From assembly GCF_013122565.1 (NCBI RefSeq), contig NZ_CP053258.1: DNA of 64,000 nt; one strand, written 5' to 3'. This document shows, piece after piece, positions 8,450-64,000 of this stretch. Each line of letters opens with the position of its first letter. Position 1 is the first letter of the stretch. The translations under genes and the position numbers were made by a program. Under the pieces are notes generated by a model. The model was not told the origin of the DNA. It did not search any database and was given only the letters and a program-made list of their open reading frames with translations. Source of the stretch: Escherichia coli. GTDB lineage: Bacteria > Pseudomonadota > Gammaproteobacteria > Enterobacterales > Enterobacteriaceae.

Positions 8450-9244
8450 TTATTGACCATTGTCGCCTTCGCGGGTTAGCCACCAGGCCCCCAGGATCGG
8501 CAAGGTTGTTACCAACATAACCAGCAGTGCCACCACGTTGGTTACCGGTACATCACGCGGTCGCCCAAGCTGATTGAGCAACCACAACGGTAACGTTCGT
8601 TCATGACCTGCCGTAAAGGTCGTAACGATGATTTCATCGAACGACAAGGCAAACGCCAGCATTCCTCCTGCCAGTAGCGCCGAACTGAGATTCGGCAACA
8701 CTACGTAGCGGAAGGTTTGCCAGCCATTGGCCCCAAGATCCATTGACGCCTCAACCAGATTCCACGAGGTGCGGCGAAAACGGGCGATGACATTGTTAAA
8801 CACCACCACTACGCAAAAAGTCGCATGACCGACCACGATGGTGAAAAATCCCGGCTCCAGATTGATGGTTTTAAAAGCGGTTAATAGCGCCAGACCAGTG
8901 ACAATGCCCGGCAGCGCAATGGGCAGCAGCAGTAACAGCGAAATGGCGTTTTTGCCGAAAAAGTCTCGTCGCCACAGCGCGGCAGCTGCCAGCGTCCCTA
9001 ACACCAGCGCGATTAATGTCGCCAGCGCTGCCACTTTAAGTGACAGTGTCACTGCATCAAGAATATCACTACGCTGTGCTGCCACGCTAAACCAGCGCAG
9101 CGTCAGGCCTTGCGGTGGAAAACTAAACGCCGCATCTTCAGTGTTAAACGCATAGGCGGCGATAATCAGGATGGGAAAATGTAGGAAAACCACGCCGCCC
9201 CAGGCCGCCAGTTTGAGGAAAAACGGTGCGCGTTCAGAGTGCAT
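8450..9244 (-). CDS. ydcV: ABC transporter permease YdcV (polyamine-type, PotC-like)
   Basis: 264-aa polytopic membrane ORF with the ABC permease EAA-like loop ([20 protein letters not shown]). Confidence 0.85.
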
Positions 9245-10175
9245 CGAACGCTCCCAGACGTTTCACGAACGCCAGGTACAGTGCGATGAGAATAATCGGC
9301 ACCAGGGTGAATGCCGCCGCCATCGGCATATTGCCAATCGCCCCCTGCTGGGAATAAACCATATTGCCGATAAAATATCCTGGAGGACCAACCAGCTGCG
9401 GGACGATAAAATCGCCCAGTGTGAGTGAGAAGGTAAAGATAGAGCCAGCGGCAATACCCGGGATTGCCAGCGGCAGCACCACATAGCGAAAGGTTTGTCG
9501 TGGACGTGCGCCGAGATCAGCTGACGCCTGCAACAATGACGGAGGCAAACGCTCAAGCGCCGCCTGCACGGGCAGGATCATGAACGGCAGCCAGATATAG
9601 AGAAACACCAGAAAGCGCCCCAGCCCGGAAGTTGACAGAGTATTGCCGCCCACCGCAGGTAATGTAAGGAACGCAGTCAGCAGTGGTTCCAGCCCAAGAT
9701 GTTGTAAAAACCACTGAGCCACGCCATCTTTTGCCAGCAATAACGTCCAGGCATAGGCTTTCACAATGTAGCTCGCCCACATCGGCAACATTACCGCAAT
9801 ATAAAAAAACGCTTTCATTTTCCCGCTGGTATAGCGCGCCATATACCACGCCATTGGAAAAGCCAGAATACCGCTGGCGATAGTGACTGCCACAGCCATA
9901 GTCAGCGTGCGGAGAATGATGTCGTAATTCGCCGGATTAAACAGCGCACGGATATTCTCCAGCGTCAGCTCCGGCGTTACCGACATGGTGAAATCGTCAA
10001 AAGTATAAAATCCCTGCCATAACAGTGTCAGCAGCGAGCCGAAATAGACAATGCCAAACCACATTAGCGGGCCAAGCAGCAGTAAAAACAGCCCCAGCCC
10101 CGGATTACGCCAGAAGAAACCGGACACCTTACCCAGACCTGGACGTGAAGGTGATTGCAATACGTTCATCGCCAT
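9234..10175 (-). CDS. ydcU: ABC transporter permease YdcU (PotB-like)
   Basis: 313-aa membrane ORF with EAA loop ([20 protein letters not shown]); overlaps the ydcV start by 11 nt. Confidence 0.85.
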
Positions 10176-17925: not shown

Positions 17926-19098
17926 ATGCGTCTGTTTTCTGTTCCTCCACCCACGCTACTGGCGGGGTTTCTGGCGGTATTAATTGGCTACGCCAGTTCA
18001 GCGGCAATAATCTGGCAAGCAGCGATTGTCGCCGGAGCCACCACTGCACAAATCTCTGGCTGGATGACGGCGCTGGGGCTGGCAATGGGCGTCAGTACGC
18101 TGACTCTGACATTATGGTATCGCGTACCTGTTCTCACCGCATGGTCAACGCCTGGCGCGGCTTTGTTGGTCACCGGATTGCAGGGACTAACACTTAACGA
18201 AGCCATCGGCGTTTTTATTGTCACCAACGCGTTAATAGTCCTCTGCGGCATAACGGGACTCTTTGCTCGTCTGATGCGCATTATTCCGCACTCGCTTGCG
18301 GCGGCAATGCTTGCCGGGATTTTATTACGCTTTGGTTTACAGGCGTTTGCCAGTCTGGACGGTCAATTTACGTTGTGTGGAAGTATGTTGCTGGTATGGC
18401 TGGCAACCAAGGCCGTTGCGCCGCGCTATGCGGTAATTGCCGCGATGATTATTGGGATCGTGATCGTTATCGCGCAAGGTGACGTTGTCACAACTGATGT
18501 TGTCTTTAAACCCGTTCTCCCCACTTATATTACCCCTGATTTTTCGTTTGCTCACAGCCTGAGCGTTGCACTCCCCCTTTTTCTGGTGACGATGGCATCG
18601 CAAAACGCACCGGGTATCGCAGCAATGAAAGCCGCCGGATATTCAACTCCTGTTTCGCCATTAATTGTATTTACTGGATTGCTGGCACTGTTTTTTTCCC
18701 CTTTCGGCGTTTATTCAGTCGGTATTGCGGCAATCACCGCGGCTATTTGCCAAAGCCCGGAAGCGCATCCGGATAAAGATCAACGTTGGCTGGCAGCTGC
18801 CGTTGCAGGCATTTTCTATTTGCTCGCAGGTCTGTTTGGTAGTGCCATTACCGGGATGATGGCTGCCCTGCCCGTAAGTTGGATCCAGATGCTGGCAGGT
18901 CTGGCGCTGTTGAGTACCATTGGCGGCAGTTTATATCAGGCGCTGCATAATGAGCGTGAGCGCGACGCGGCGGTGGTGGCATTTCTGGTAACGGCAAGTG
19001 GATTGACGCTGGTCGGGATTGGTTCTGCGTTTTGGGGATTAATTGCCGGAGGTGTTTGTTACGTGGTGTTGAATTTAATCGCTGACAGAAACCGATAA
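17926..19098 (+). CDS. ydcO: BenE-family membrane transporter YdcO
   Basis: ORF 17665..19098 trimmed to the internal MRLFSVPPPTLLAGFLAVLIGY start (about 390 aa); polytopic membrane protein. The track ORF start would overlap the divergent ydcN. Confidence 0.8.
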   Translation: MRLFSVPPPTLLAGFLAVLIGYASSAAIIWQAAIVAGATTAQISGWMTALGLAMGVSTLTLTLWYRVPVLTAWSTPGAALLVTGLQGLTLNEAIGVFIVTNALIVLCGITGLFARLMRIIPHSLAAAMLAGILLRFGLQAFASLDGQFTLCGSMLLVWLATKAVAPRYAVIAAMIIGIVIVIAQGDVVTTDVVFKPVLPTYITPDFSFAHSLSVALPLFLVTMASQNAPGIAAMKAAGYSTPVSPLIVFTGLLALFFSPFGVYSVGIAAITAAICQSPEAHPDKDQRWLAAAVAGIFYLLAGLFGSAITGMMAALPVSWIQMLAGLALLSTIGGSLYQALHNERERDAAVVAFLVTASGLTLVGIGSAFWGLIAGGVCYVVLNLIADRNR

Positions 19099-19104
19099 TA
19101 AAAA

Positions 19105-19124
19105 GCGCCATCTAACGATGGCGC
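19105..19124. terminator. Hairpin between convergent ydcO and ydcL
   Basis: gcgccatc / gatggcgc stem with a taac loop, preceded by aaaa on the plus strand (a T-run for the minus-strand ydcL transcript). Confidence 0.6.
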
Positions 19125-19132
19125 GTCTGGAA

Positions 19133-19801
19133 CTACTTTTTGTTAACGTCAAACATGGTGGCATCGGTCGCCATGTCATCAATAACTTGTTTAATATTTT
19201 CGAAAGCCATTGGCGTACTTTCGTTATTCAGGTCTTTACCTTCGCCCTGACGAACGACTTTGATAACCGGTTTATTAGTCGCTGCATCAATCAGCTCACC
19301 TTCAAAATACAAGCGAGTATCCATGGTACGGTGGCCTGTAGCCATTTGCGTCCCCGCAACCACTAATGCAACAGGAACCACTTCATAGAATTGCAGCCCT
19401 TCTTTGCTGGTATCTACACCGGTAATGGCCCCACGGAAAATCAGACTACGCGGCCCCGCGGTGGTAACCAGTGGTTTACGCTGCGCTATCGCTTCTTTCA
19501 TTTCGGTGTTGGTATAGTTCAAAATTTTATCCAGAACTTTCTGCCCTACCTGGGTCGAAGGTTTCGGTACCGGATAATAAGTGATTGGGTTCCAGACGAT
19601 GCTGTCATATTTGCTTTGATCAAAACTCGGGTCTACCCAACGTAAAACCGGTTTACCTGTAGCCGAGGTTGTTTCTTTTAAATCAGAGTAATTGTTTAAA
19701 AAACCAGAATATTTATCTGGCTGGGTGATTTTAGAGGCACAACCAGACAGAGCCAACAAGCCGCATAAAGCTGCAACTTTCGCAAATGATGTGGTACGCA
19801 T
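19133..19801 (-). CDS. ydcL: Lipoprotein YdcL
   Basis: 222-aa ORF with a lipobox (LLALSGC ASK) after the signal peptide. Confidence 0.85.
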   Translation of the reverse strand: MRTTSFAKVAALCGLLALSGCASKITQPDKYSGFLNNYSDLKETTSATGKPVLRWVDPSFDQSKYDSIVWNPITYYPVPKPSTQVGQKVLDKILNYTNTEMKEAIAQRKPLVTTAGPRSLIFRGAITGVDTSKEGLQFYEVVPVALVVAGTQMATGHRTMDTRLYFEGELIDAATNKPVIKVVRQGEGKDLNNESTPMAFENIKQVIDDMATDATMFDVNKK

Positions 19802-20104
19802 GAATAGTTTCCTGAGATGATTATATTACTTTTTAAGTTATAGCAAAAAGCGCCGCTTCGTGTTGTGGCAAAAAAAGTGTTGGTGAAAATAAAATTTTTT
19901 AGCCCCTTTTCAGACGACATAGTCAATGCCGCAAAAGGGGCTAAGTCAATCATCAGTAGTTAAATTTCAGTAAGTTAAGCTGCTAAAAAACTTCGACTAC
20001 TGTGATTAATTTCACATCCCTTCGATAAAAAATATGCTTACCGAAAAGAAGGACAGTAAACCATCTCAGCGTGGGGAATTTTCACGCGCTTTGTTCTTAC
20101 CGGG

Positions 20105-32580: not shown

Positions 32581-34020
32581 TCAAGACTGTAAATAAACCA
32601 CCTGGGTCTGCAGATATTCATGCAGGCCATGTTTACCATCTGCGCCGCCAATACCGGATTTACGCCATCCGGCGTGGAAGCCTTGCATAGCTTCGAAGTT
32701 TTCACGGTTGATGTAAGTTTCACCAAACTTCAGCCCTTTAATGGCTTTCATCGCGACGTTCAGATTTTGGGTATAGATTGATGAGGTCAGGCCGTAATCA
32801 CTGTCATTAGCCATTGAGATAGCATCTTCCAGCGTGTCAAATGCGACAACTGGCAGCACCGGGCCAAAGGTTTCCTCATGCATAATCGACATTTCCTGGC
32901 GAACATCCAGCAGCAATGTCGGCGGATAATAATATCCTTTCCCCTCTACCGCTTTGCCACCCAACGCCACTCTCGCCCCTTCTTCTACTGCGCGCGCCAC
33001 TTTTTGCTCGACCCTTTCCAGCGCCGCGGCGTTAATCAACGGCCCCATCGCAATGTCGTTGCGTTCAGCGGGGTTACCAAATTGAACCGCCTGCATCGCT
33101 TCACCCAGCCGATTGACGAACTGATCATAAATGCCTTTCTGTACATAAACACGTTCTGCACAGTTACACACTTGCCCACTATTAATGACGCGTGAATCAA
33201 CGATGGCTTTGACTGCCAGTTCAAGATCGGCATCGTCCATTACGATAGCTGGTGCTTTACCACCCAATTCCAGACACACTTTAGTGATGTTTTTCGCCGC
33301 AGTCGCCATGATCTTCTCACCTGCAGAGACGCTGCCTGTCATACTGACCATTGCGACCTTTGGGTTACCCGCCAGTTCTTGCCCAACGGTTTCACCACGC
33401 CCCAGAACAAGGTTAAACACGCCGCGCGGAAGGCCTATTTCATCGACGATTTTGGCGAATGCAATCGCATTGTTTGGCGTAAATTCACTGGGTTTAATGA
33501 CGATGGTATTACCGGTCAAAAGAGCGGGAGCCATTTTGCGGGCAATGAGGAAGAACGGGAAGTTCCACGGCAGAATGCCGGTAGTCACGCCAAGTGCACG
33601 TTTAAACAGAAGAATATTTTCTCCTGGACGATCGCTTTGAATAATCTCGCCCTCGTAACGCCGTGCCCACTCCGCCATGTAATCGATATAGTCCGCAGTA
33701 AAAGCCACTTCGACTTCAGCCAGCTGCTGGATCTTGCCCCCTTCTTCAACAATCAGCGCACTGATTTCACTGGCGCGTTCGCGGATCCCGGCGGAGATTT
33801 TGCGCAACCAACTGGCGCGTTCAATGGCAGGCAACGCTTCCCATTCTGGTTGTGCACGTTCTGCTGCATCGATTGCCTTACGGGCATCCTCGGCCTGACC
33901 ATCGGGAATGCGGGAAATGACAGCCTCTGTAGCAGGGTTTACCACATCAATCCATGCGTCTCCACGCCAGGTAACAAACTGTCCATCAATATACATAGGA
34001 TGTTGAACGGGTACTGACAT
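32581..34020 (-). CDS. aldA: Lactaldehyde dehydrogenase (NAD-dependent aldehyde dehydrogenase A)
   Basis: 479-aa ORF with aldehyde dehydrogenase motifs (LELGGKAP, catalytic-Cys region GQVCNCAERVYV). Confidence 0.9.
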   Translation of the reverse strand: MSVPVQHPMYIDGQFVTWRGDAWIDVVNPATEAVISRIPDGQAEDARKAIDAAERAQPEWEALPAIERASWLRKISAGIRERASEISALIVEEGGKIQQLAEVEVAFTADYIDYMAEWARRYEGEIIQSDRPGENILLFKRALGVTTGILPWNFPFFLIARKMAPALLTGNTIVIKPSEFTPNNAIAFAKIVDEIGLPRGVFNLVLGRGETVGQELAGNPKVAMVSMTGSVSAGEKIMATAAKNITKVCLELGGKAPAIVMDDADLELAVKAIVDSRVINSGQVCNCAERVYVQKGIYDQFVNRLGEAMQAVQFGNPAERNDIAMGPLINAAALERVEQKVARAVEEGARVALGGKAVEGKGYYYPPTLLLDVRQEMSIMHEETFGPVLPVVAFDTLEDAISMANDSDYGLTSSIYTQNLNVAMKAIKGLKFGETYINRENFEAMQGFHAGWRKSGIGGADGKHGLHEYLQTQVVYLQS

Positions 34021-48237: not shown

Positions 48238-51200
48238 TTAGAACGTTTTCTTGAAGTTCAGCATCACGCCTTTGTCGCTGATGCCGTCCTCTTTCCAGTT
48301 GTACGCATCCAGGTTCAGTGAGCTTTCTTTGCTGCTGTACTTCACGCCGACGCTTGCCAGGCTGTTGATGCCGCCACCCTTCTGACCGTCATCGACGTTA
48401 AAGTGCTGACTGCCTGCGCCTGCCAGGCTTGCCGTGCGCTGGCTCTTCGCGTAGCTCAGATTCGGCCCGCCTTCCAGCGTGGCGCTAGCGCTCCAGCCGT
48501 CTTTACCTGCGTAATCCAGTTTCAACCCGACGATGCTGTCCACCGCCGTTTCGCTGCCACTGTTCATATTCAGGTTAAAGTCTCCGGCATTGCGCTCCTG
48601 ATAGCCACCTTCCAGTGTGTGACGCAGTTTAACACCCGCATATGGCGTAACCTTCAGTCCTTCGCTCGGTTCGAAAGTCTTCGCCCCTTCGCTGCGGAAC
48701 TCCAGGTACTGCTGCTTCACGTCGGTATCAGCCGTTTTGTTTGTGTTGCTAAATGCAATCGAACGGCTGCTGTCAAGGTTGTGAACGTCATAACGCAATG
48801 CGTTATTCCAGTTCATGCCGTTGTCGAAGGACATCTGATGTTTCAGGCCAAAGAACTGGCTGTAGCCGCCGGTTACGCCGTTGTCGCCCGCTTTCTGCGC
48901 ACCATCGCCATCCAGACGCGCAATACCGTATTCCAGGCTCATGCTCTGGCTTTCGCTCAGGTCGATGGTTTTACGCAATGCCAGCATGTCGTACTCGGTA
49001 TTATTACCTAACTCGGCACGCGGATCGCCTTTCGCCACCACGTTGAACGCCAGACCATTGCCCACTTTCGGCGCGGCATCCGCCAGCATACTAAAGCGGT
49101 TGCTTAACACGCGCGCTTCACGGAACACCGTGGTCGCCAGGCTACCGCTGACCTGTTTCAGGGCGCTGTTCAGTTCGGCGGTGGTGCCAACGTTCAGGCT
49201 GGTATACAGCTCGTTGTTGGTGTAACCCGCATCCAGTGCCTTCGCGACGTCATTTACCGAAGCATCGGTTGCGACATCGGTGTAGGCATTTTTGCTCATG
49301 GTAACGTCAACGTTACCGTTGGCATCGGTGCTGCCTTTGGCGTTCCATACGACCGTAGAGGAAACGATGTTGTCCACACCGCTGATGTTTTCGCCTTTGA
49401 ATACATCGTTAACGACAACGGTGGTATCCGCTGTTCCTGCACTAAACCCGGCATTAACACTCACGTTGTCGCCAATCACCAGGTTATTCGCGCTGAGCGT
49501 ACCGGAACTCCCGTCGCTATTGGTACCGATGGTATAGTTGCTCAGCAGTTGCGGCGCATTTGAATCAGCAGGCGGGGTTGGAACATCACCTTGTGACGGC
49601 GTAGTTGATGCGTCTGGTACGGTGATATCCACAGTACCGTTGTGGTCGTTTTGTGTACCCGTTGTTCCAGGAGCATAAATATCGCATCCGGTATCACACA
49701 GCAGGTTAATTTCACCGTTGTTAATGATGGCTTTCGTTTGCCCACCAAACGCCCAGGAATTATCGGCATAGACATTAATCACACCCGTTTGCGTGTTATT
49801 AATTGTTGTTTCCCGACCATTGCCTTTAATACCAATTAAACCTTCGCCATTGGTTCCATCCTGTTGCCCCTGCTCAGTACCCACATTAATGGTGCCACTG
49901 TTCACCAACTGAACAACATAACTGGTTGTGCCGCCACTGATGCCCACCGCATTATCGCCCTGAACATTAATAACGCCAGCGTTAGCAAAGTTATAACCTC
50001 GTCCTAAATCAACCAACGGAGCCGCAGGGTTAATACCATTGATTACCCCTGTTTCTGTGTTCCAGATCCATTTACCTTTACTGTTCGAGCCAGTACTTTC
50101 GGTTTTGATCGCGCTGTAGCCATTTGTAGCCGTAATGGTTCCACGGTTAACCTGAGATACAGAATCCCCGGTTCTGGTTACATGAATAATCGCGTTTTCA
50201 CCGCCCGTTACCGCATTACCACTATTCGTCAGGGTCGCACCCGCTTCGTTGAAGAACAGGAAACTCCCGTTGATGAGTGATTGCCCATCTTCGGTCACCG
50301 TCATTTCACCGGTATTCACTACGTTCTGTTGATAGCTGTTGCCGGTAATTGAACCGCTGAACTCACCTTCGTTAAAGAAGGAAACCGCACCATTCAACGT
50401 AAGGAGATCTGTTGTCATGCTCCCGGTTTCACGGTTATAGATCGTGGTTTTGCTGTTAATACTGTCAACATCCAGGGTCCCACTATTCTCCAACCCTTGA
50501 GTGACACTCAGTTCGCCATTGATGGTCAGACTGGCATCAGGTTGGTTATATAACCAGCCGTTTGCATCAACATTGCCATTAAGCGTTTCATCTCCGTAGT
50601 TTGCCAGGTTATTAACAACGACAAAACCGTCGGTAGTTGTGGTTTTGCTGATGCTCTCCCCGCTACCAGACAACTCGCTAAGAACATCTTTGTCATCCGG
50701 CGTCACCCCCATATGGGAATCACTTTCATCCATTGGATTACCGAAAAGAGTAATTTTTCCGTAGTTGAGAATGGTACCGGTGCTATCTTTATAAAACGCC
50801 TGACCAATATCAGTATTAATATTAATCACACCATCCTGGTCATTAATGGCCAGACCACCTTGAATTGCCCCCATCGCGAACAACTGGTTATCTTGCTGCT
50901 TCGTCACACCCTCATCGGCGGTGAGATTGATCGTTCCCTGGTTGACAACGGTCCCGCCGCTCATCGCCAGCATACCAAAACCTTCGTTATTAACATTGAT
51001 GGTTCCGGTATTTAACCCACTGGCATCGCCATTTCCGATATCGGTTGACCCTACAACAACGCCACCGGACATAAGATAAGGATGGGGTGGTTGCCAGTAG
51101 GATTTACTAATGATATTGCCATCTTCATCAAGTTCGGGAACAAAACCATCGACATTGATTTCCCCGGCATTTGTCGCCGTGCCTTTAGATGCTGCAGCAG

Positions 51201-54200
51201 CATAGTTTCCCGCGCCTTGCAAATTAATGGTGGCGTCAGATTCATTCACTGTGATGCCGTAATCACTGGCCCACAGCCCGTAGTTGACACCGAAATACCA
51301 TTTCAGGGGGGATTCAGACATCCCGCCTGCGTATGCAGGTGTCGTTACAGAGATCAGATTAATAACCCCACCCGACGCATTCGTAACCTGAGAATTCTGG
51401 CCACGAGCACGCATTGTCCCCCCCCTGGAGAATTCCTCACCGCTAGGTTTGACATTAATAATTCCACTATTAGTGATATGTGCACCATTGTTAGCCGTCA
51501 TTAAATCCTGGCTATCCATTGTGTTAATCACACCTTTGTTTTCAACGCTGGACTGACTGCCAATAGCAGAAATAAGCGCACGTTCAAAGAAGAAAAAGTC
51601 GGTTTCCCTGGCTTTACTGGATATATCCGTTACAGCGTTTTCATCAAATATAACTTTTCCACCGTCCGCCACCGAGACCAACGTAAAGGCACCCAATTCC
51701 TGACGGGTATCCATTGTCGAATGACCACTAATGTTAACGGTATTGTCACCAATAACCGATACGCCATCTATAACATGTGCGGCGCTATCACCACTAATAT
51801 TAATACCGCCATCAATATTAACGGTATTCTTCTCGCCAGAAACAATTATGCCACTCACTAAATTTTCCTGGTGTAGCAGCTCCCCTTGTACGGTGATATC
51901 AACATGGCCACTAATATCTACAGTGTTATTTTTACCACTAATCGTTCCACCTGTTAATGCTGTGATTTGTGCATCAGGGTTATCGCCGAGGATGGAATTA
52001 ACATTGATGCTTCCGTCAACGCTAATATGGCTGTCATTACCCGTCAGACTGAAACCTGTAGCACCCGGCGCATTGCCCTCGCTGTCTGGTTGCTGGAATA
52101 CGTTAATATCGCCGCTTAATTGAACCTGTTCACGGTCACCCGCAATGGATACCCCAGTTCCGTACCGTGAAACATCAATTTCGCCCACGTTACCGAAAAC
52201 TTCATCATCACCATCAATCAGAATCCCCACAGAACCGGAATCCGTGACAACAATTTTGCCTTTATTACTTAACTGCGAGTTATTACCGGCAATATCAATA
52301 CCCGTTGCCCCTCCGCTGACGTAGAGGTCACCTTCCTGGCTAATTGTTGCATTGTGACCGGCAACTTTTGTCCCTACTGCATTCGCACCGTCAACCGTCA
52401 TATCCCCGGCGATATTCATCTCATTGCCATCGCCAGTGATGGTTATACCTGTGGCATTTTCACCCAAAATATTAAGATCATAGGTTGCCAGGGTTATACT
52501 ATTGTTGTCGCCGATAATCTCCATGCCAGTCGTATCGTCTTTAACCAGCATTGAGCCAGCAAGAGAAATACTGCTGCTGTCCCCGGTGATTTTTACACCA
52601 GTACCGCTATTTGTTGTGGTGATGTCTCCCACATTGACAAAGGTAGTATTATCACCATTGATTAACACGCCGTAGGGGTTTCCGTCACTGTCCGCCTGAC
52701 CTACATTGATATCACCAATGTTCATAAAGGTTGTTTGATCGCCATCCAGCAATACACCGATGGAAGTATCATCCACCACAGTAACATTACCCTTATTACT
52801 GACGAGAGTACCTTTACCCTCGGCGTCAATACCGTGTGCGCCACCGCTGACGTATAAATCACCCTGTTGCCTTACAATGGCATCTTCGCCGATAATTTTT
52901 GATCCCGTTGAATTTGCACCATCGACGGTCATGTCGCCTTTGATTTCAATGCGGGCATCATCCCCTGTAATCACACTCCCCGTGCCACCATTCGTGATTT
53001 CGACATCACCAACGGTGTTCAACGTAGTACGATCGCCATTGACAATAACGGCCGTACCACCATCGACATCTGTCTCACCATTATTAGTAATGGTGATATC
53101 GTCACCGGTAAGAATACCTACCACCGAACCTTCACCAATCGCGGTAGTTTGACCGTCGTTGTTCAGGGTGATGTCGTTACCGTCAACGTTTATCACAACG
53201 CCGCCATTCAGCGCGATGTTGCCGCCATGGTCGGTAATAGTGGCATCGTTAATATGGAAATGTTCGCCAGTTGTACCGTCTGCGGTGGTGAGTGACTCTA
53301 TGATTATTTCGATTTTTCCCGCTTCGTCATAGCGCCAGGTGGAGGTTCCGCTCGGATTGACGCCATTGAACGAAGCAGTGTTAGCCGCCTCGTCGACTAA
53401 CCAATCCTTTACGATTGTGGTAGTGCCGCCAGGTCCGGTAAGCGTATAGCTGCCATCGTCATTTTTGGTGTAGGTAAAGGTGGTATCACGTAATTTTAGG
53501 GTCTTCGCGTCCTGATCCCAGGTGACATCGTTTTTATAGACCACTGGATCGTGTTTAACTGGCGTGTCATCGCCACCGTCATCCGGGGTGTCATCGCCGC
53601 CATCATCTGGCGGGACGGGGGTGTCGCCGCCATCATCCGGCGGGACTGGTGTGTCGCCGCCATCATCCGGCGGGACTGGTGTATCACCGCCATCATCCGG
53701 CGGGACTGGTGTGTCGCCGCCATCATCCGGCGGGACTGGTGTGTCACCGCCATCATCCGGCGGGACAGGTGTATCACTGCCATCGTCTGGCGGGACTGGC
53801 GTGTCGCCGCCATCATCCGGCGGGATGGGTGTATCACCGCCATCATCCGGCGGGACGGGTGTATCACCGCCATCATCCGGCGGGACTGGCGTGTCGCCGC
53901 CATCATCCGGCGGGACGGGTGTATCACCACCATCATCCGGCGGGACTGGCGTGTCGCCGCCATCATCCGGCACCGGAGACGAATCGTCATGATGATTATT
54001 ATTATCGTGGAGTGCATATACTGCGACACCTGTGACTGCCGCTGCCAGCCCCACTGCAGCCCAGGGTAATAACTCATTATCTTCAACTGATTTACACTCT
54101 GCCGGCAGCTTTTCTAGCTGTTCTTTACTTAGTGATTTAATATTGGCCGGGCAGCTAATCTTGCTGGATTTACGAGATTCATCCGATGTTTCCGCTATCG

Positions 54201-54273
54201 ACGTATCTGCCGCCCATGTCTGGCTGCTTAACGCCATTGCAACACAGACACTGAGCAATTTTTTCCTTTGCAT
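48238..54273 (-). CDS. ydbA: YdbA, giant type Va autotransporter (AIDA-like), intact 2011-aa reading frame
   Basis: Single 6036-nt ORF: signal peptide, Pro/Asp/Gly decapeptide repeat stalk, very long Gly/Thr/Asn-rich beta-helical passenger with pervasive internal repeats, and a C-terminal beta-barrel translocator ending MLNFKKTF. Confidence 0.9.
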   Translation of the reverse strand: MQRKKLLSVCVAMALSSQTWAADTSIAETSDESRKSSKISCPANIKSLSKEQLEKLPAECKSVEDNELLPWAAVGLAAAVTGVAVYALHDNNNHHDDSSPVPDDGGDTPVPPDDGGDTPVPPDDGGDTPVPPDDGGDTPVPPDDGGDTPIPPDDGGDTPVPPDDGSDTPVPPDDGGDTPVPPDDGGDTPVPPDDGGDTPVPPDDGGDTPVPPDDGGDTPVPPDDGGDDTPDDGGDDTPVKHDPVVYKNDVTWDQDAKTLKLRDTTFTYTKNDDGSYTLTGPGGTTTIVKDWLVDEAANTASFNGVNPSGTSTWRYDEAGKIEIIIESLTTADGTTGEHFHINDATITDHGGNIALNGGVVINVDGNDITLNNDGQTTAIGEGSVVGILTGDDITITNNGETDVDGGTAVIVNGDRTTLNTVGDVEITNGGTGSVITGDDARIEIKGDMTVDGANSTGSKIIGEDAIVRQQGDLYVSGGAHGIDAEGKGTLVSNKGNVTVVDDTSIGVLLDGDQTTFMNIGDINVGQADSDGNPYGVLINGDNTTFVNVGDITTTNSGTGVKITGDSSSISLAGSMLVKDDTTGMEIIGDNNSITLATYDLNILGENATGITITGDGNEMNIAGDMTVDGANAVGTKVAGHNATISQEGDLYVSGGATGIDIAGNNSQLSNKGKIVVTDSGSVGILIDGDDEVFGNVGEIDVSRYGTGVSIAGDREQVQLSGDINVFQQPDSEGNAPGATGFSLTGNDSHISVDGSINVNSILGDNPDAQITALTGGTISGKNNTVDISGHVDITVQGELLHQENLVSGIIVSGEKNTVNIDGGINISGDSAAHVIDGVSVIGDNTVNISGHSTMDTRQELGAFTLVSVADGGKVIFDENAVTDISSKARETDFFFFERALISAIGSQSSVENKGVINTMDSQDLMTANNGAHITNSGIINVKPSGEEFSRGGTMRARGQNSQVTNASGGVINLISVTTPAYAGGMSESPLKWYFGVNYGLWASDYGITVNESDATINLQGAGNYAAAASKGTATNAGEINVDGFVPELDEDGNIISKSYWQPPHPYLMSGGVVVGSTDIGNGDASGLNTGTINVNNEGFGMLAMSGGTVVNQGTINLTADEGVTKQQDNQLFAMGAIQGGLAINDQDGVININTDIGQAFYKDSTGTILNYGKITLFGNPMDESDSHMGVTPDDKDVLSELSGSGESISKTTTTDGFVVVNNLANYGDETLNGNVDANGWLYNQPDASLTINGELSVTQGLENSGTLDVDSINSKTTIYNRETGSMTTDLLTLNGAVSFFNEGEFSGSITGNSYQQNVVNTGEMTVTEDGQSLINGSFLFFNEAGATLTNSGNAVTGGENAIIHVTRTGDSVSQVNRGTITATNGYSAIKTESTGSNSKGKWIWNTETGVINGINPAAPLVDLGRGYNFANAGVINVQGDNAVGISGGTTSYVVQLVNSGTINVGTEQGQQDGTNGEGLIGIKGNGRETTINNTQTGVINVYADNSWAFGGQTKAIINNGEINLLCDTGCDIYAPGTTGTQNDHNGTVDITVPDASTTPSQGDVPTPPADSNAPQLLSNYTIGTNSDGSSGTLSANNLVIGDNVSVNAGFSAGTADTTVVVNDVFKGENISGVDNIVSSTVVWNAKGSTDANGNVDVTMSKNAYTDVATDASVNDVAKALDAGYTNNELYTSLNVGTTAELNSALKQVSGSLATTVFREARVLSNRFSMLADAAPKVGNGLAFNVVAKGDPRAELGNNTEYDMLALRKTIDLSESQSMSLEYGIARLDGDGAQKAGDNGVTGGYSQFFGLKHQMSFDNGMNWNNALRYDVHNLDSSRSIAFSNTNKTADTDVKQQYLEFRSEGAKTFEPSEGLKVTPYAGVKLRHTLEGGYQERNAGDFNLNMNSGSETAVDSIVGLKLDYAGKDGWSASATLEGGPNLSYAKSQRTASLAGAGSQHFNVDDGQKGGGINSLASVGVKYSSKESSLNLDAYNWKEDGISDKGVMLNFKKTF
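53565..53975 (-). repeat. About 13 to 14 near-identical 30-bp tandem repeats inside ydbA, encoding PVPPDDGGDT units
   Basis: Directly visible periodicity: (ggtgtcgccgccatcatccggcgggactgg)n with only a few substitutions; in-frame units (PVPPDDGGDT, PIPPDDGGDT, PVPPDDGSDT) at about residues 100 to 240. Confidence 0.9.
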
Positions 54274-54674
54274 ATGAAATTCCTCATAAATAGATGCTTA
54301 CGCAGCCCAGATAAACTGCACAGGGTTAAATAGTTAAAAATATTCGAAATCTGGATATTGTTTTTAACAGAATAAATATATTGATTTAGTGAATGTATTT
54401 ATTCATTAAGTCAATATATCTTTTCTTTAATTTATATTTTTAACGCATTTATTTCAACTTAAAATATGGCGTAATTGAGATTAAATCCGATAACACCGAT
54501 GAATTAAATAATGCAATTAATTCATGAAATAAATAAATTATCATGTGAATGAAGCATTCATCATCGGCATCTATATGAAATTAAATGAAAAATAATTCTC
54601 TATAGCATTGCAGTTAATATTGAATATTTCAGGAGGTACAACCAGGCAGATTTTTCTCGACGAATACCGACTTA

Positions 54675-55001
54675 TTATTTTTGCAACCACATTCCGTTTA
54701 TCCCGCGAATGTATTCTCCCGGCTTAGCTTTTGCTACCAGTTTCTGCCCCGCCAATTTTTCCACTTCCGCAACCGGCAGATTATTTTTCATGGCGAGTTG
54801 TTGATAGCTCTTATTACGCGATTCATTAATCCTTTTGACTAACATCTGTGTTTCGGTATCCGCCTTTAATGCAACCAGATAACCATTATACGTTTCGCCA
54901 ACACGCCCCTGAGTTCGAGCGTCATCCAGCGTCAGAGCCATCGCACTGGTGCTAAATAAGGCATTAATGACAAAACACAGTATTAAACTTCTCTTCATCA
55001 T
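54675..55001 (-). CDS. ydbL: Periplasmic protein YdbL (DUF1318)
   Basis: ORF 54675..55079 trimmed to the MMKRSLILCFVINALFSTSAMA start (108 aa) with a signal peptide; third gene of ydbH-ynbE-ydbL. Confidence 0.8.
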   Translation of the reverse strand: MMKRSLILCFVINALFSTSAMALTLDDARTQGRVGETYNGYLVALKADTETQMLVKRINESRNKSYQQLAMKNNLPVAEVEKLAGQKLVAKAKPGEYIRGINGMWLQK

Positions 55002-55005
55002 CGCC

Positions 55006-55191
55006 TCAGAAAAGATCGCTACGAGTTTCAAGCAGCTCTTCGACATCTTTGTCTGCCTTGATGATGATCTCATGCTCAATTTTAACGTTCATATTGATAG
55101 TGATCGGTTCCTTAGGTGCAGCGACTTCAATGCGAGGCGTACAGCCAACCAGCATAAAAGATGACGTCAACGCAGCCAGTAAAATTTTCAT
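55006..55191 (-). CDS. ynbE: Small lipoprotein YnbE (61 aa)
   Basis: MKILLAALTSSFMLVGCTPRIEV... with a lipobox (LVGC); its start overlaps the ydbH stop by 4 nt. Confidence 0.8.
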   Translation of the reverse strand: MKILLAALTSSFMLVGCTPRIEVAAPKEPITINMNVKIEHEIIIKADKDVEELLETRSDLF

Positions 55192-57827
55192 TGTTTTTCC
55201 TCACACTCTTTTCCTTGCGGACAGTCATTTCCCGGCAGACGTGCGTTCTGCTCCAACCATGCCTGGAGATTATCGCCAAAGCGTAAACTGCGCCACAGCG
55301 TAAAAATATTCTCTTCATGATGGTAATTAAGGTTTACCGTACCGCTTTTACCATCAACGCGACTGGTACCTGTAATGTTGGCCTGCATGGTTAATAAACC
55401 GAGATTATCTAAATTAATATTTGTCGATGAACGGCTAATTTCCATATAGCGCAACCAGTTAATTGCTGAACCCGCAGTCATATTGTCTTTCACCACCGCA
55501 TCTGCGGTGTCTTTATCCAGCCGCAAGGTCATTGGCCCGCTATTTGCCAGCCAACCATCTTTCACAATCCATTTTTCGTTGTTTAGCCATAACGGCAATG
55601 CACCACTAAATGCCCCGGACATGGCGAATTGTTTCGGATTGATGGCGCTAACCAGTTCGCTGGATGAGAGATTATTCAGCCGCAACAGCGCCGGGTCATG
55701 TTGCGGCATACGTAATTGTTTCATCAGCACGTTACCGCCTAACACATCGACGCTAACATCAGTCAACAGCAATGGTTCTTCTTCTGTCCACGGATAGCGC
55801 CCTTGCAAATCAGCCGTAATATTTTTCGCTGTCACCAGATTAATCACTTCGGCAATTCGCAACGTAACGGGGCCGCGAGTCCCCAGATGCCAGGCTCCAT
55901 CGGCAAAACGGAAAGGCAGGACAAAATCGACACCGTTAACCTGATTATCTGGCATCCAGGCACTACCGCCTTTCAACACGCCGTGCCCTCCCGCGCGGAA
56001 TCCTTGTTCAGGCGCAGCAGAAAATGCAACCTGAGCATACAGTTCACCATCGCGTAAGTTCATCTTCCAGTCGGGTGGCACCAGCGGCTGGAATACAGTC
56101 AGTGATTGTTTAGGCCACCAGGCGTTACCGCGCAGACGAATACCGTCCCAGCGACCATTTACCCGAACCGGGCCAATCTCACCAGCATGTAAATCGCCTT
56201 TAAAGAGGAAATAGGTAGGATCGCGCCCATCGACACTAAATTTTAAGGTTGATGGCGGTAACAGACTGCCGCCAGTGAACAGCGTTTGCCCGGCGTCCAG
56301 TGACAGCGCGCCGCTGAAGGAGGGATGCTGTGCGTCACGTACCCAGACGACGGGCTTGTCGAGAATTAGTCGCGGCTTTTCTACCGTCATCGTACCGTAT
56401 TGTAACTGGTCGAAACCGGTGGAGAGATCGGTCAGCGTAATCGTGCTGTCATGCCACTCACCTTTTCCTGCGACATCCCAGGTGGCATTCATCGGTGTAA
56501 AACTGCCTTTTCCCCAGTAGCGCCACTGCCAGCGGCCAGCGTCAGGGAGAAAATCATTCGCCAGCCCATCCATATGCAGCACGAAATCGCCCAGTTCATT
56601 TTCATGCGCCTGCAAGATGGCCTGCAAACGTCCGTCAACACCACGTTGGGTGACTTTTACACCCGCTAAAGGCCAGCGGATTTCATCGATGTCCAGCGAA
56701 TCGATGACTCTTCCCTTCGAACGTAATAACGCGCCTGGCTCAAAGGCTAACGTTGGGTCAGTCAGACTTCCACTTAGCTGCGCGGGTAAGCGGGCATATA
56801 AAATGAGGTCCGCCTGTTTCGCTTCACCGGTCAGCTGCAGAGGCAGCTGACTGTTATCCATGCTTAATTTTCCTGGGCCAAAATTAAGCACCGCGTTGCC
56901 CTTACCCGCTTGCCCCTGGGTCAGCACACTCAGTCGTCCGCTGACCACTGCGTTCTCGATACCTGCCTGCCAGTTGTCGACTTTGACACCCAGTCGTCCA
57001 CTCAAAGGAAAACCTACATACGGCCAGCTCCAGCGACCATCGCTTACCGTCAATTGTTGACGAGTAATTTGCCACGGCAAATCGAGCAACGGATCGCCGT
57101 TATCCCGTGCCAGCACAATCAATTGCCCGCTATTTTCCTGCCAGTCCAGCTCGGCATCCACCAGTGACGGTTCCTGCGGCAAGTTTAACGTCGCAGTAGC
57201 ATGCCCACTTACAGGAAGTCCATCCGGCACTAGCGGCATAGTAAATTCCCCCACCAGTTTTACCGGCGGCTGATTTTCAAACGCGGCGACATCCAGTTCG
57301 CTGACTGTAAGTTGTTGCCCTTTCAACTGGCCTTGAAATTTAACTTTTTCGCCCTGATAACGCAGTTGCTGGATATCAGAGGTTAATGCGAGAGAGAGTT
57401 TTCCCTGCCATTCCTGCCAAGGAGAAAAAATCAGTTTATCGATATTGATCCAGGTGTTAGGCAGCATGGACTGCCACTGCGCGAGGGTTTTTGGAGCGGC
57501 TGGCGATTGCTCCGTCTGCGGCAATTTCGCCAGACAAGCAGAATCAAGTTCTACCGTGCCGACGTTCAATAACCAGCGGCTGGGATGTGAAAGGCTGGCG
57601 TTGGTGATATGCGCAAGCTGACAATCTCCCACCAGATAACGGAGATCGGGAATGATTAAACCTTTACGCGTAATGCGTGGGCTTTCATCTAATGCAATAC
57701 GTGTCCCGAGCGGTAGCCAGATGCCCGCCAGCGTGGGAACCCACAGCCCGAGCGTCATCAGCAGCGTCAACGGCACAAGAATAATCAGTAATAACAGCGC
57801 GAGAACGGCTTTATATTTACCCAGCAT
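55188..57827 (-). CDS. ydbH: AsmA-like large envelope protein YdbH
   Basis: 879-aa ORF with an N-terminal membrane anchor (MLGKYKAVLALLLLIILVPLTLLMTLGLWV) followed by a long predicted periplasmic domain. Confidence 0.85.
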   Translation of the reverse strand: MLGKYKAVLALLLLIILVPLTLLMTLGLWVPTLAGIWLPLGTRIALDESPRITRKGLIIPDLRYLVGDCQLAHITNASLSHPSRWLLNVGTVELDSACLAKLPQTEQSPAAPKTLAQWQSMLPNTWINIDKLIFSPWQEWQGKLSLALTSDIQQLRYQGEKVKFQGQLKGQQLTVSELDVAAFENQPPVKLVGEFTMPLVPDGLPVSGHATATLNLPQEPSLVDAELDWQENSGQLIVLARDNGDPLLDLPWQITRQQLTVSDGRWSWPYVGFPLSGRLGVKVDNWQAGIENAVVSGRLSVLTQGQAGKGNAVLNFGPGKLSMDNSQLPLQLTGEAKQADLILYARLPAQLSGSLTDPTLAFEPGALLRSKGRVIDSLDIDEIRWPLAGVKVTQRGVDGRLQAILQAHENELGDFVLHMDGLANDFLPDAGRWQWRYWGKGSFTPMNATWDVAGKGEWHDSTITLTDLSTGFDQLQYGTMTVEKPRLILDKPVVWVRDAQHPSFSGALSLDAGQTLFTGGSLLPPSTLKFSVDGRDPTYFLFKGDLHAGEIGPVRVNGRWDGIRLRGNAWWPKQSLTVFQPLVPPDWKMNLRDGELYAQVAFSAAPEQGFRAGGHGVLKGGSAWMPDNQVNGVDFVLPFRFADGAWHLGTRGPVTLRIAEVINLVTAKNITADLQGRYPWTEEEPLLLTDVSVDVLGGNVLMKQLRMPQHDPALLRLNNLSSSELVSAINPKQFAMSGAFSGALPLWLNNEKWIVKDGWLANSGPMTLRLDKDTADAVVKDNMTAGSAINWLRYMEISRSSTNINLDNLGLLTMQANITGTSRVDGKSGTVNLNYHHEENIFTLWRSLRFGDNLQAWLEQNARLPGNDCPQGKECEEKQ

Positions 57828-58034: not shown

Positions 58035-59024
58035 ATGAAACTCGCCGTTTATAGCACAAAACAGTACGACAAGAAGTACCTGCAACAGGTGAACGAGTCC
58101 TTTGGCTTTGAGCTGGAATTTTTTGACTTTCTGCTGACGGAAAAAACCGCTAAAACTGCCAATGGCTGCGAAGCGGTATGTATTTTCGTAAACGATGACG
58201 GCAGCCGCCCGGTGCTGGAAGAGCTGAAAAAGCACGGCGTTAAATATATCGCCCTGCGCTGTGCCGGTTTCAATAACGTCGACCTTGACGCGGCAAAAGA
58301 ACTGGGGCTGAAAGTAGTCCGTGTTCCAGCCTATGATCCAGAAGCCGTTGCTGAACACGCCATCGGTATGATGATGACGCTGAACCGCCGTATTCACCGC
58401 GCGTATCAGCGTACCCGTGACGCTAACTTCTCTCTGGAAGGTCTGACCGGCTTTACTATGTATGGCAAAACGGCAGGCGTTATCGGTACCGGTAAAATCG
58501 GTGTGGCGATGCTGCGCATTCTGAAAGGTTTTGGTATGCGTCTGCTGGCGTTCGATCCGTATCCAAGTGCGGCGGCGCTGGAACTCGGTGTGGAGTATGT
58601 CGATCTGCCAACCCTGTTCTCTGAATCAGACGTTATCTCTCTGCACTGCCCACTGACACCGGAAAACTACCATCTGTTGAACGAAGCCGCCTTCGATCAG
58701 ATGAAAAATGGTGTGATGATCGTCAATACCAGTCGCGGTGCATTGATTGATTCTCAGGCGGCAATTGAAGCGCTGAAAAATCAGAAAATTGGTTCGTTGG
58801 GTATGGACGTGTATGAGAACGAACGCGATCTGTTCTTTGAAGATAAATCCAACGACGTAATTCAGGATGACGTATTCCGTCGCCTGTCTGCCTGCCACAA
58901 CGTGCTGTTTACCGGGCACCAGGCATTCCTGACAGCAGAAGCTCTGACCAGTATTTCTCAGACTACGCTGCAAAACTTAAGCAATCTGGAAAAAGGCGAA
59001 ACCTGCCCGAACGAACTGGTTTAA
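58035..59024 (+). CDS. ldhA: Fermentative D-lactate dehydrogenase (D-2-hydroxyacid dehydrogenase family)
   Basis: 329-aa ORF with the NAD-binding GXGXXG motif (GVIGTGKIGVA); divergent from ydbH. Confidence 0.9.
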   Translation: MKLAVYSTKQYDKKYLQQVNESFGFELEFFDFLLTEKTAKTANGCEAVCIFVNDDGSRPVLEELKKHGVKYIALRCAGFNNVDLDAAKELGLKVVRVPAYDPEAVAEHAIGMMMTLNRRIHRAYQRTRDANFSLEGLTGFTMYGKTAGVIGTGKIGVAMLRILKGFGMRLLAFDPYPSAAALELGVEYVDLPTLFSESDVISLHCPLTPENYHLLNEAAFDQMKNGVMIVNTSRGALIDSQAAIEALKNQKIGSLGMDVYENERDLFFEDKSNDVIQDDVFRRLSACHNVLFTGHQAFLTAEALTSISQTTLQNLSNLEKGETCPNELV

Positions 59025-63000: not shown

Positions 63001-63618
63001 GGCTTTGGCGGTCTGGATCATGTATTGAGTTTGACGGAAAACGTCAACATTCTGGTGCTGGATACGCAATGCTATTCCAACACCGGTGGTCAGGCGTCGA
63101 AAGCGACACCGCTGGGTGCAGTAACTAAGTTCGGCGAGCACGGCAAACGTAAAGCGCGTAAAGATCTTGGCGTCAGTATGATGATGTACGGTCATGTTTA
63201 TGTGGCGCAGATTTCTCTCGGCGCGCAGCTGAACCAGACGGTGAAAGCGATTCAGGAAGCGGAAGCGTATCCGGGACCATCGCTTGTCATTGCTTATAGC
63301 CCGTGTGAAGAGCATGGTTACGATCTGGCTCTCAGCCACGACCAGATGCGCCAACTCACTGCTACCGGCTTCTGGCCGCTATATCGCTTCGATCCTCGTC
63401 GTGCCGATGAAGGCAAACTGCCGCTGGCGCTGGATTCACGCCCGCCGTCAGAAGCACTGGAAGAAACGTTACTTCATGAGCAGCGTTTCCGTCGTCTGAA
63501 TTCGCAGCAGCCAGAAGTGGCAGAACAGTTATGGAAAGATGCTGCAGCTGATTTGCAAAAACGCTATGACTTCCTGGCACAAATGGCCGGAAAAGCGGAA
63601 AAAAGCAACACCGATTAA
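60094..63618 (+). CDS. pfo: Pyruvate:flavodoxin/ferredoxin oxidoreductase (YdbK/Pfo, NifJ-like)
   Basis: 1174-aa ORF with two 4Fe-4S ferredoxin motifs (CTQCNHCVAACP and CTGCNLCVEVCP) and a thiamine-diphosphate-binding C-terminal domain (GGDGWAYDIGFGGLDH). Confidence 0.92.
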   Translation: MITIDGNGAVASVAFRTSEVIAIYPITPSSTMAEQADAWAGNGLKNVWGDTPRVVEMQSEAGAIATVHGALQTGALSTSFTSSQGLLLMIPTLYKLAGELTPFVLHVAARTVATHALSIFGDHSDVMAVRQTGCAMLCAANVQEAQDFALISQIATLKSRVPFIHFFDGFRTSHEINKIVPLADDTILDLMPQAEIDAHRARALNPEHPVIRGTSANPDTYFQSREATNPWYNAVYDHVEQAMNDFAAATGRQYQPFEYYGHPQAERVIILMGSAIGTCEEVVDELLTRGEKVGVLKVRLYRPFSAKHLLQALPGSVRSVAVLDRTKEPGAQAEPLYLDVMTALAEAFNNGERETLPRVIGGRYGLSSKEFGPDCVLAVFAELNEAKPKARFTVGIYDDVTNLSLPLPENTLPNSAKLEALFYGLGSDGSVSATKNNIKIIGNSTPWYAQGYFVYDSKKAGGLTVSHLRVSEQPIRSAYLISQADFVGCHQLQFIDKYQMAERLKPGGIFLLNTPYSADEVWSRLPQEVQAVLNQKKARFYVINAAKIARECGLAARINTVMQMAFFHLTQILPGDSALAELQGAIAKSYSSKGQDLVERNWQALALARESVEEVPLQPVNPHSASRPPVVSDAAPDFVKTVTAAMLAGLGDALPVSALPPDGTWPMGTTRWEKRNIAEEIPIWKEELCTQCNHCVAACPHSAIRAKVVPPEAMENAPASLHSLDVKSRDMRGQKYVLQVAPEDCTGCNLCVEVCPAKDRQNPEIKAINMMSRLEHVEEEKINYDFFLNLPEIDRSKLERIDIRTSQLITPLFEYSGACSGCGETPYIKLLTQLYGDRMLIANATGCSSIYGGNLPSTPYTTDANGRGPAWANSLFEDNAEFGLGFRLTVDQHRVRVLRLLDQFADKIPAELLTALKSDATPEVRREQVAALRQQLNDVAEAHELLRDADALVEKSIWLIGGDGWAYDIGFGGLDHVLSLTENVNILVLDTQCYSNTGGQASKATPLGAVTKFGEHGKRKARKDLGVSMMMYGHVYVAQISLGAQLNQTVKAIQEAEAYPGPSLVIAYSPCEEHGYDLALSHDQMRQLTATGFWPLYRFDPRRADEGKLPLALDSRPPSEALEETLLHEQRFRRLNSQQPEVAEQLWKDAAADLQKRYDFLAQMAGKAEKSNTD

Positions 63619-63646
63619 ATGCACTGGATAAGGATTATCCAATTCT

Positions 63647-63684
63647 AAAAAAAAGCCCGGACGACTGTTCGGGCTTGTCTTTTT
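63647..63684. terminator. Bidirectional Rho-independent terminator shared by pfo and micC
   Basis: GC-rich hairpin (gcccg ... cgggc, 63654..63676) flanked by A8 upstream and gtcttttt downstream, so a U-run follows on either strand. Confidence 0.7.
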
Positions 63685-63756
63685 ATATGTTAGAAAATCA
63701 GTGGCAATGCAATGGCCCAACAGAAAATAAAATCTGTGACAATAAAGGCATATAAC
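63648..63756 (-). ncRNA. micC: MicC small RNA (Hfq-dependent repressor of ompC/ompD)
   Basis: Reverse complement reads gttatatgcctttattgtcacagattttattttctgttgggccattgcattgccactgatttt...aagcccgaacagtcgtccgggctttttttt, matching MicC as I recall it; divergent from ompN. Confidence 0.7.
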
Positions 63757-63983
63757 CCGCGCAGAATAACGTATAGCAAATTAAAAGTATAATTTTTATT
63801 TTGTATGTATTATCTTCGATACATTCACCAGACTTATTATCATTTCAGAAGAATTATTTGATTAAGGTTTTACTTAAGGCGTAACAAATGATATTTATCG
63901 GCTAACTGAACTTCTCCTTTAGGATGTTTTCACTCCCCGAAATGGGGATAAAAGGCAAATAAAATAACTAAAGGATTTATTCA

Positions 63984-64000
63984 ATGAAAAGCAAAGTACT
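63984..64000 (+). CDS. ompN: Outer membrane porin OmpN, first 5 to 6 codons only (window ends)
   Basis: ATGAAAAGCAAAGTACT encodes MKSKV, the typical porin signal-peptide start, preceded by an aaggat Shine-Dalgarno; the call rests mostly on synteny. Confidence 0.45.

Follow-up and report, generated by a model that had tools for sequence, protein, structure and literature searches.

The locus analyzed here lies within a window, by which we refer to the whole 64-kb stretch of Escherichia coli DNA under study. On its minus strand, ydbA (48238-54273), an intact allele of a putative BigA-family autotransporter adhesin gene with an ORF of 2011 aa, starts with an ATG at 54271-54273, upstream of which a GAGGAA ribosome-binding site is found. 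An intergenic spacer (54274-54674) separates ydbA from ydbL (54675-54998, minus strand), a deeply divergent allele of 107 aa with its stop at 54675 and its annotated start at 54998. These are followed by ynbE (55006-55191, minus strand), which is the first gene beyond the divergent block described below, then by ydbH (55188-57827, minus strand) and ldhA (58035-59024, plus strand). A first-pass annotation of this DNA had put about 400 bp between the start of ydbA (54273) and the stop of ydbL (54675), and these coordinates proved to be exact.

The same annotation described the spacer as AT-rich and devoid of coding capacity, and this description also stands. The spacer is a 401-bp, non-coding and haplotype-specific sequence with a GC content of 26.7%, as compared to 49.6% window-wide. 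No 401-bp segment of the 64 kb has a lower GC content, and only 0.11% of such segments are equally AT-rich. The second-lowest GC stretch (63598-63998, 32.4% GC) is found downstream of nifJ. Only one ORF is wholly internal to the spacer, and it encodes 31 aa. It was considered as a gene and rejected, as only one of four related sequences keeps it unbroken (an internal stop appears in two relatives, while the start and frame are lost in a third), such that no conserved ORF remains. The spacer matched no Rfam family and no plasmid, and a search for tRNA genes in positions 40000-64000 of the window found none.

The first-pass annotation had also placed the ydbA promoter in the spacer and considered the spacer to be an AT-rich tract of the kind that H-NS typically binds; for this putative H-NS binding, the analysis covered base composition (26.7% GC). 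For the regulation of ydbA, the spacer offers a candidate sigma-70 promoter on the minus strand (54429-54457), with TTGAAA and TAAATT hexamers separated by 17 nt. This is the one promoter-like site in 54100-54850, where shuffled sequence averages 3.9. As the scan thus gave fewer promoter-like sites than expected by chance, the promoter is to be regarded as a candidate. Both hexamers are invariant in five copies of the haplotype, including one with a spacer that is only 82% identical. Just downstream of the candidate -10 hexamer, an AT-rich imperfect palindrome (54369-54426) is found, with 26-nt arms that are 85% complementary and a 6-nt gap. Folded as DNA, the palindrome reaches -9.5 kcal/mol (z = -3.5), a value matched by 0 of 200 shuffles, and it is conserved in the diverged copy found in a Logan contig, in which the spacer is 82% identical. 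A 21-bp tandem repeat called at 54370-54430 (score 52) is better read as the two arms of this palindrome. In a five-sequence alignment, identity to the diverged Logan copy reaches 91% in the half of the spacer that adjoins ydbA, as compared to 74% in the distal half. We infer that regulation of the intact autotransporter gene would reside in the ydbA-proximal ~190 bp. It is plausible that this conserved half contains a ydbA promoter and an operator-like element, while the notion that the palindrome may serve as the operator is speculation. Both assignments draw on conservation and on a single, weak match to the consensus. For ydbL, a terminator scan of the minus strand found no terminator.

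The K-12 arrangement and the absence of the catabolic island

In K-12 MG1655, the gene order is ydbL, feaR, feaB, tynA, paaZ, paaA-K, paaX, paaY and ydbA, the distance from the ydbL stop to the ydbA start being 19,185 bp. The order given in the first-pass annotation, with ~20 kb of fea, tynA and paa genes between ydbL and ydbA, was therefore correct. In its passages on the K-12 feaRB-tynA-paaZABCDEFGHIJKXY locus, PMC4951805 cites Ferrandez 1998 and Diaz 2001. The reported lack of this cluster between ydbA and ydbL was likewise confirmed. When all 17 K-12 island proteins were compared to the 64-kb window by tblastn, no fea, tynA or paa orthologue was found, with the only matches being distant aldehyde-dehydrogenase paralogues at 7007-8425 (38%) and 32740-33867 (26%). 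The outer flanks of the window are syntenic with K-12 and closely alike in sequence, with pdxI, ydbD and ynbA-D on one side presenting 95-99% aa identity and ynbE, ydbH and ldhA on the other presenting 98.6-100% aa identity. Between these flanks, however, K-12 differs from the window in containing 19.2 kb of catabolic genes and another ydbL allele. The ydbA gene is intact (2011 aa) in the window, whereas in K-12 it is a pseudogene that is interrupted by IS2 and IS30. The first-pass annotation predicted that the strain would be unable to use phenylacetate or 2-phenylethylamine for growth, and this prediction is reasonable.

The absence of the island is an ordinary strain difference that has already been published. 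At least 80% of the island is carried by 3,097 of the 5,426 complete E. coli genomes and any piece of it by 4,194, with 1,232 genomes having none; partial island sequence only is found in ~1,100 genomes. For the paa locus, heterogeneity was described in the interval from ydbH-ynbE-ydbL to ynbC-ynbD-azoR, with ydbA also being variable throughout (PMC4951805, Goldstone et al. 2016), and in one strain panel the locus was absent from the genomes of phylogroups B2 and E (PMC5422975). In E. coli B, the cluster was lost via an IS-mediated event (PMC3032704). The presence or absence of phenylacetate and phenylethylamine genes thus belongs to the known metabolic diversity of E. coli, which has been discussed for bovine mastitis isolates and for phylogroups B2 and E, and in this respect the window adds only one more island-negative strain. 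It should be noted, however, that PMC4951805 treats ydbL as a core gene and that the deep ydbL allele classes and unalignable spacers considered below are not described there.

Boundaries and content of the divergent block

The left flank of the locus is 96.9% identical to K-12 up to 49353, inside the part of ydbA that encodes the C-terminus, and beyond this position no BLAST match to K-12 is found. Similarity to K-12 restarts at 54677, with 66-73% identity across ydbL, and from 55004 onwards identity is at or near 100%. Mismatches to K-12 number 115 in 54660-54991, with one at 55003 and only one in 55004-55418, and the right boundary of the block lies at 54991-55003. The divergent haplotype block so delimited (49354-55003, ~5.6 kb) includes the ydbA passenger domain, with ~4.9 kb of ydbA, the spacer and ydbL, and occupies the place of ~27 kb in K-12.

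The first-pass annotation had taken the spacer to mark the insertion or deletion junction of the island, and this claim did not survive the comparison. The spacer contains no breakpoint, the flanking ydbL and the ydbA passenger are likewise divergent, and the change in similarity occurs abruptly at the ydbL start and not within the spacer. Moreover, when compared to the two intergenic regions of K-12, ydbA-paaY and feaR-ydbL, the spacer gave no significant match, and it shows no similarity to the spacers of strains 536 and SS17 or to the intergenic regions of the outgroups. Searches of the window with blastn and tblastn found no paaY, paaX or feaR fragments. These alignments show that the spacer is not a deletion scar from a K-12-like chromosome but intergenic DNA that is native to a ~5.6-kb haplotype. 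This haplotype differs from its K-12 counterpart as much as one would expect of a separate enterobacterial genus. For the locus, we also considered a classical integrative island and rejected it, as no tRNA gene (in 40000-64000), integrase or flanking repeats were found. The K-12 island itself has no annotated integrase, and the repeats flanking its ends are only short chance matches.

Of the two genes in the block, ydbA is replaced only in part. Its last ~372 codons (~1.1 kb) are K-12-like, with 90-98% nt identity to K-12 ydbA. At the protein level, the N-terminal part is 33% identical to K-12 YdbA and the C-terminal part 54%. The N-terminus carries a Sec-type signal peptide (MQRKKLLSVCVAMALSSQTWA), and residues 534-2011 match the NCBIfam family NF033178 (auto_BigA) with 2053 bits, a score below the curated cut-off of 3400. 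The window ydbA is the positional allele, with a divergent passenger domain. The allele is, in addition, a mosaic, with 49353-50759 resembling the allele of 536 (B2) and 50759-54273 resembling that of VE-T9. Near the YdbA N-terminus, a 30-bp tandem repeat of 12.6 copies (53594-53971, minus strand) encodes PPDDGGDTPV decapeptides. This stretch presents 65-68% GC and, as the matches of other genomes are offset there, the repeat copy number varies among carriers.

The second gene, ydbL, is divergent over its entire length, with 68% nt and 63% aa identity to K-12 ydbL. For this pair, dS is 1.67 and dN is 0.25 (dN/dS ~0.15), while comparison to Citrobacter yields a roughly equal distance, with a dS of 2.5 and a dN of 0.29. 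Between the K-12 and O157 alleles of ydbL, dS is 0.83, again over only 107 codons. As the gene is so short and is generally fast-evolving, dating from these values is noisy. Next to it, the ynbE product is 100% identical in amino acids to K-12 YnbE and ydbH is 98.1% identical in nucleotides.

Several observations bear on whether the divergent ydbL is still used. The window YdbL is 99% identical to a protein that bears PF07027 (P0001), which assigns it to the YdbL family (PF07027/DUF1318); a search of NCBIfam with the window YdbL gave no match. Thirteen of the 16 key residues that were mutagenized in K-12 YdbL are identical (L24, R28, E35, Y40, N58, R61, Y65, L68, N72, K86, L87, W104 and K107), and mutagenesis had shown these to be required in K-12 YdbL. 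The three changes, E60S, I79V and R90K, are conservative or tolerated, with K-12 YdbL having tolerated E60A/D and R90K upon mutagenesis. The retention of key residues, together with a dN/dS of ~0.15, points to the divergent allele being a functional gene.

To look for relatives of this allele, we searched 5.8 billion proteins with the window YdbL and considered identities among the matches listed. All named matches at 96% or higher are labelled E. coli; below 96%, one metagenome protein at 90% and one at 72% are found, while the remaining homologues, including those of other Escherichia, Citrobacter and Salmonella, present 59-70% identity over 107 aa. No donor species was found among the matches listed. 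A scan of GTDB species representatives, which relies on exact peptide words, yielded three loci, two from Citrobacter (64%) and one from Arsukibacterium (37%), and no donor. In a neighbour-joining tree, the window YdbL branches outside the Escherichia, Citrobacter and Salmonella alleles, while YdbL of the O157 type clusters with the alleles of E. ruysiae, E. marmotae and E. albertii, and a separate clade contains the K-12/B2 type. In E. coli, no fewer than three discrete classes of ydbL allele (K-12/B2, O157 and window type) exist, which share 63-71% aa identity and lie beside an invariant ynbE.

Other alleles at the site, their frequency and the outgroups

Two strains, 536 and SS17, resemble the window in gene arrangement and differ from it in sequence. 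In 536 (B2), ydbA adjoins ydbL across a spacer of ~375 bp with 31% GC, the flanks are ynbE-ydbH-ldhA and pdxI as in the window, and no fea, tynA or paa genes are present. The 536 spacer, however, is a composite of K-12 sequence, with positions 1-312 corresponding to the K-12 ydbA-paaY intergenic region and positions 312-375 to the 64 bp at the end of the feaR-ydbL intergenic region, i.e., a single clean join by which ~18.8 kb were removed. Its YdbL is of the K-12 type at 96% aa identity, as compared to 63% for the window allele. In SS17 (O157:H7), ydbA also adjoins a divergent ydbL, with a 413-bp spacer of 27% GC and no island. Unlike the window, SS17 has a spacer that cannot be aligned to ours, a YdbL that is 64.5% identical to that of the window, and a ydbA that is split into two CDS. 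The SS17 locus is a third, separate haplotype. With three mutually unalignable haplotypes at the site, the absence of the island need not imply a junction.

Scars of the island are found in other strains. In Ecol_881, the scar (9001-9932 in the numbering of that locus) contains paaY together with paaX and feaR fragments, and ydbA is absent. In M70, the scar (9001-9579 in the numbering of that locus) contains paaY and feaR fragments. As in 536, ydbL is of the K-12 type in both strains, with 96-99% aa identity across the three. Ecol_881 and M70 are clinical strains, and the difference between their scars shows repeated, independent loss of the island. Among the loci examined, the island or its remains were seen only in the K-12/B2 haplotype. 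This fits with the island belonging to that haplotype and having been lost from it several times by deletion, while the window-type haplotype, as far as its sequence goes, bears no sign of ever having held the island.

Of the 5,426 E. coli genomes, exactly 114 (2.1%) carry the window-type spacer, in all cases at full length and with 91.5-98% identity, and even a search in distant mode revealed none beyond these 114. For ydbL, 116 genomes carry the allele at 90% identity or higher and 5,295 carry one at 60-80%, with none at 80-90%, and a combined ydbA-spacer-ydbL query was covered in 114 genomes. The block thus behaves as one discrete allele, and the haplotype is in complete linkage. A more diverged copy was found in a Logan contig, in which the spacer is 82% and YdbL ~90% identical to the window, while the background is E. 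coli-like, with ydbH being 96.5% identical to E. coli. The haplotype thus has diversity of its own. As for the strain itself, none of the complete E. coli genomes in the collection reaches 99% identity to the window, with the best matches being at 98.8% over 24 kb in isolates from a baboon and from bovine faeces, so that its lineage is poorly represented among complete genomes. Given the poor match of ydbL to K-12, we also considered whether the window could derive from another Escherichia species. This was rejected, as identity to E. coli is 97-99.7% for the left flank and for ydbH, ldhA and nifJ, while the identity of ydbH to the window is 88% for E. marmotae and 83% for E. albertii.

The outgroups Citrobacter, E. 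albertii and E. marmotae have pdxI immediately after ydbL, with neither ydbA nor the island being present. When these genomes are compared, the stretch between ydbL and azoR grows stepwise, containing only pdxI in E. marmotae and Citrobacter and ydbD as well in E. albertii. In E. coli, ydbA, ynbA-D and sometimes the fea-paa island are further found there. As the outgroups lack both ydbA and the island, both are additions made in the E. coli lineage at the ydbL/pdxI site, which has repeatedly accepted DNA.

Origin of the haplotype

We consider the locus to be, probably, an island-free haplotype of xenologous or ancient origin that was installed by homologous recombination. Given the ordinary E. 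coli outer flanks and the sharp right boundary, recombination of the whole haplotype is the most economical mechanism. Such recombination would have brought the haplotype into E. coli or passed it from one E. coli lineage to another, with one crossover presumably at the ynbE/ydbL boundary and the other in the conserved part of ydbA that encodes the C-terminus. A recipient that carried the island would lose it by such allelic replacement, leaving no scar. As no donor species was found, it is the divergence and the sharp boundary that argue for import, and this should be considered when referring to the origin of the block, since the same picture would be expected of an ancient allele maintained within E. 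coli.

The simplest reading of the missing genes would be that a K-12-like ancestor lost its 19-kb island, with the spacer being the junction. Such deletions do occur here, as seen from the Ecol_881 and M70 scars and the clean join in 536, as well as from the IS-mediated loss in E. coli B cited above. For the window, nonetheless, this reading is very improbable, as no part of the spacer corresponds to the K-12 intergenic regions, as the identity shift falls abruptly at the ydbL start, outside the spacer, and as both flanking genes were replaced, with ydbL at 68% nt identity presenting saturated dS and the ydbA passenger having no nucleotide match. Still harder to credit is that the island moved elsewhere in the genome by inversion, transposition or via a plasmid, for which we see barely any chance. 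Our view of this genome is limited to 64 kb, and copies of island sequence on plasmids do exist, although they are few (4 places in one search and 7 in another, which used paaA/tynA probes). Across complete genomes, however, the 4,194 genomes with island sequence have it at 4,214 places in total (median, one place each), and none of the island genes lies in the window. In addition, we queried the best 60 of the 114 haplotype carriers with the window spacer and ydbL joined to 300-bp paaA and tynA probes. Each of these 60 genomes gave one match, at the place of the spacer and ydbL, and neither probe was matched elsewhere on their chromosomes.

It is also conceivable, albeit unlikely, that the window preserves an ancestral empty site by vertical descent and that the K-12-type block, together with the island, arrived later. 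No outgroup (Citrobacter, E. albertii and E. marmotae) carries the island, and in the loci examined the island or its scars accompany only the K-12/B2-type haplotype, both of which would be expected were the island a later arrival. The same outgroups, however, have no ydbA and hence lend no support to an ancestral adjacency of ydbA and ydbL. Furthermore, it is the O157-type YdbL that is closest to those of E. ruysiae, E. marmotae and E. albertii, while the window type falls outside all of these. The haplotype is also rare (2.1%), and its carriers, with genomes of 4.57 Mb to 5.29 Mb and varied hosts, suggest a scattered distribution.

A more specific proposal can be made, although only tentatively, as we consider it possible rather than probable. 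In this proposal, the ydbA passenger, the spacer and ydbL form a discrete cassette, which would be either a xenologue derived from an enterobacterial lineage not yet sampled or a balanced allele of great age. It would be one of at least three E. coli cassettes (K-12/B2 type, O157 type and window type) with no intermediates between them, which diversifying selection on the adhesin would keep apart, carrying ydbL along. Were this true, ydbL, a periplasmic modulator of the YdbH-YnbE lipid bridge, would be 37% divergent at the protein level between strains with identical YnbE. What the present analysis adds in detail is that three unalignable ydbA-ydbL haplotypes exist at the site and that no donor was found for the window type, which is a modest population-genetic refinement of a known kind of polymorphism.

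Treating ydbL as a uniform core gene hides 30-37% protein divergence. This could matter for the published work on YdbH-YnbE-YdbL lipid transport, which considered the K-12 allele only. The neighbourhood of ydbL and ynbE is altered in another manner in ETEC1730, where an IS91-family element lies between the two genes (18261-19813 in the numbering of that locus) and the annotated ynbE is shortened to 171 bp.
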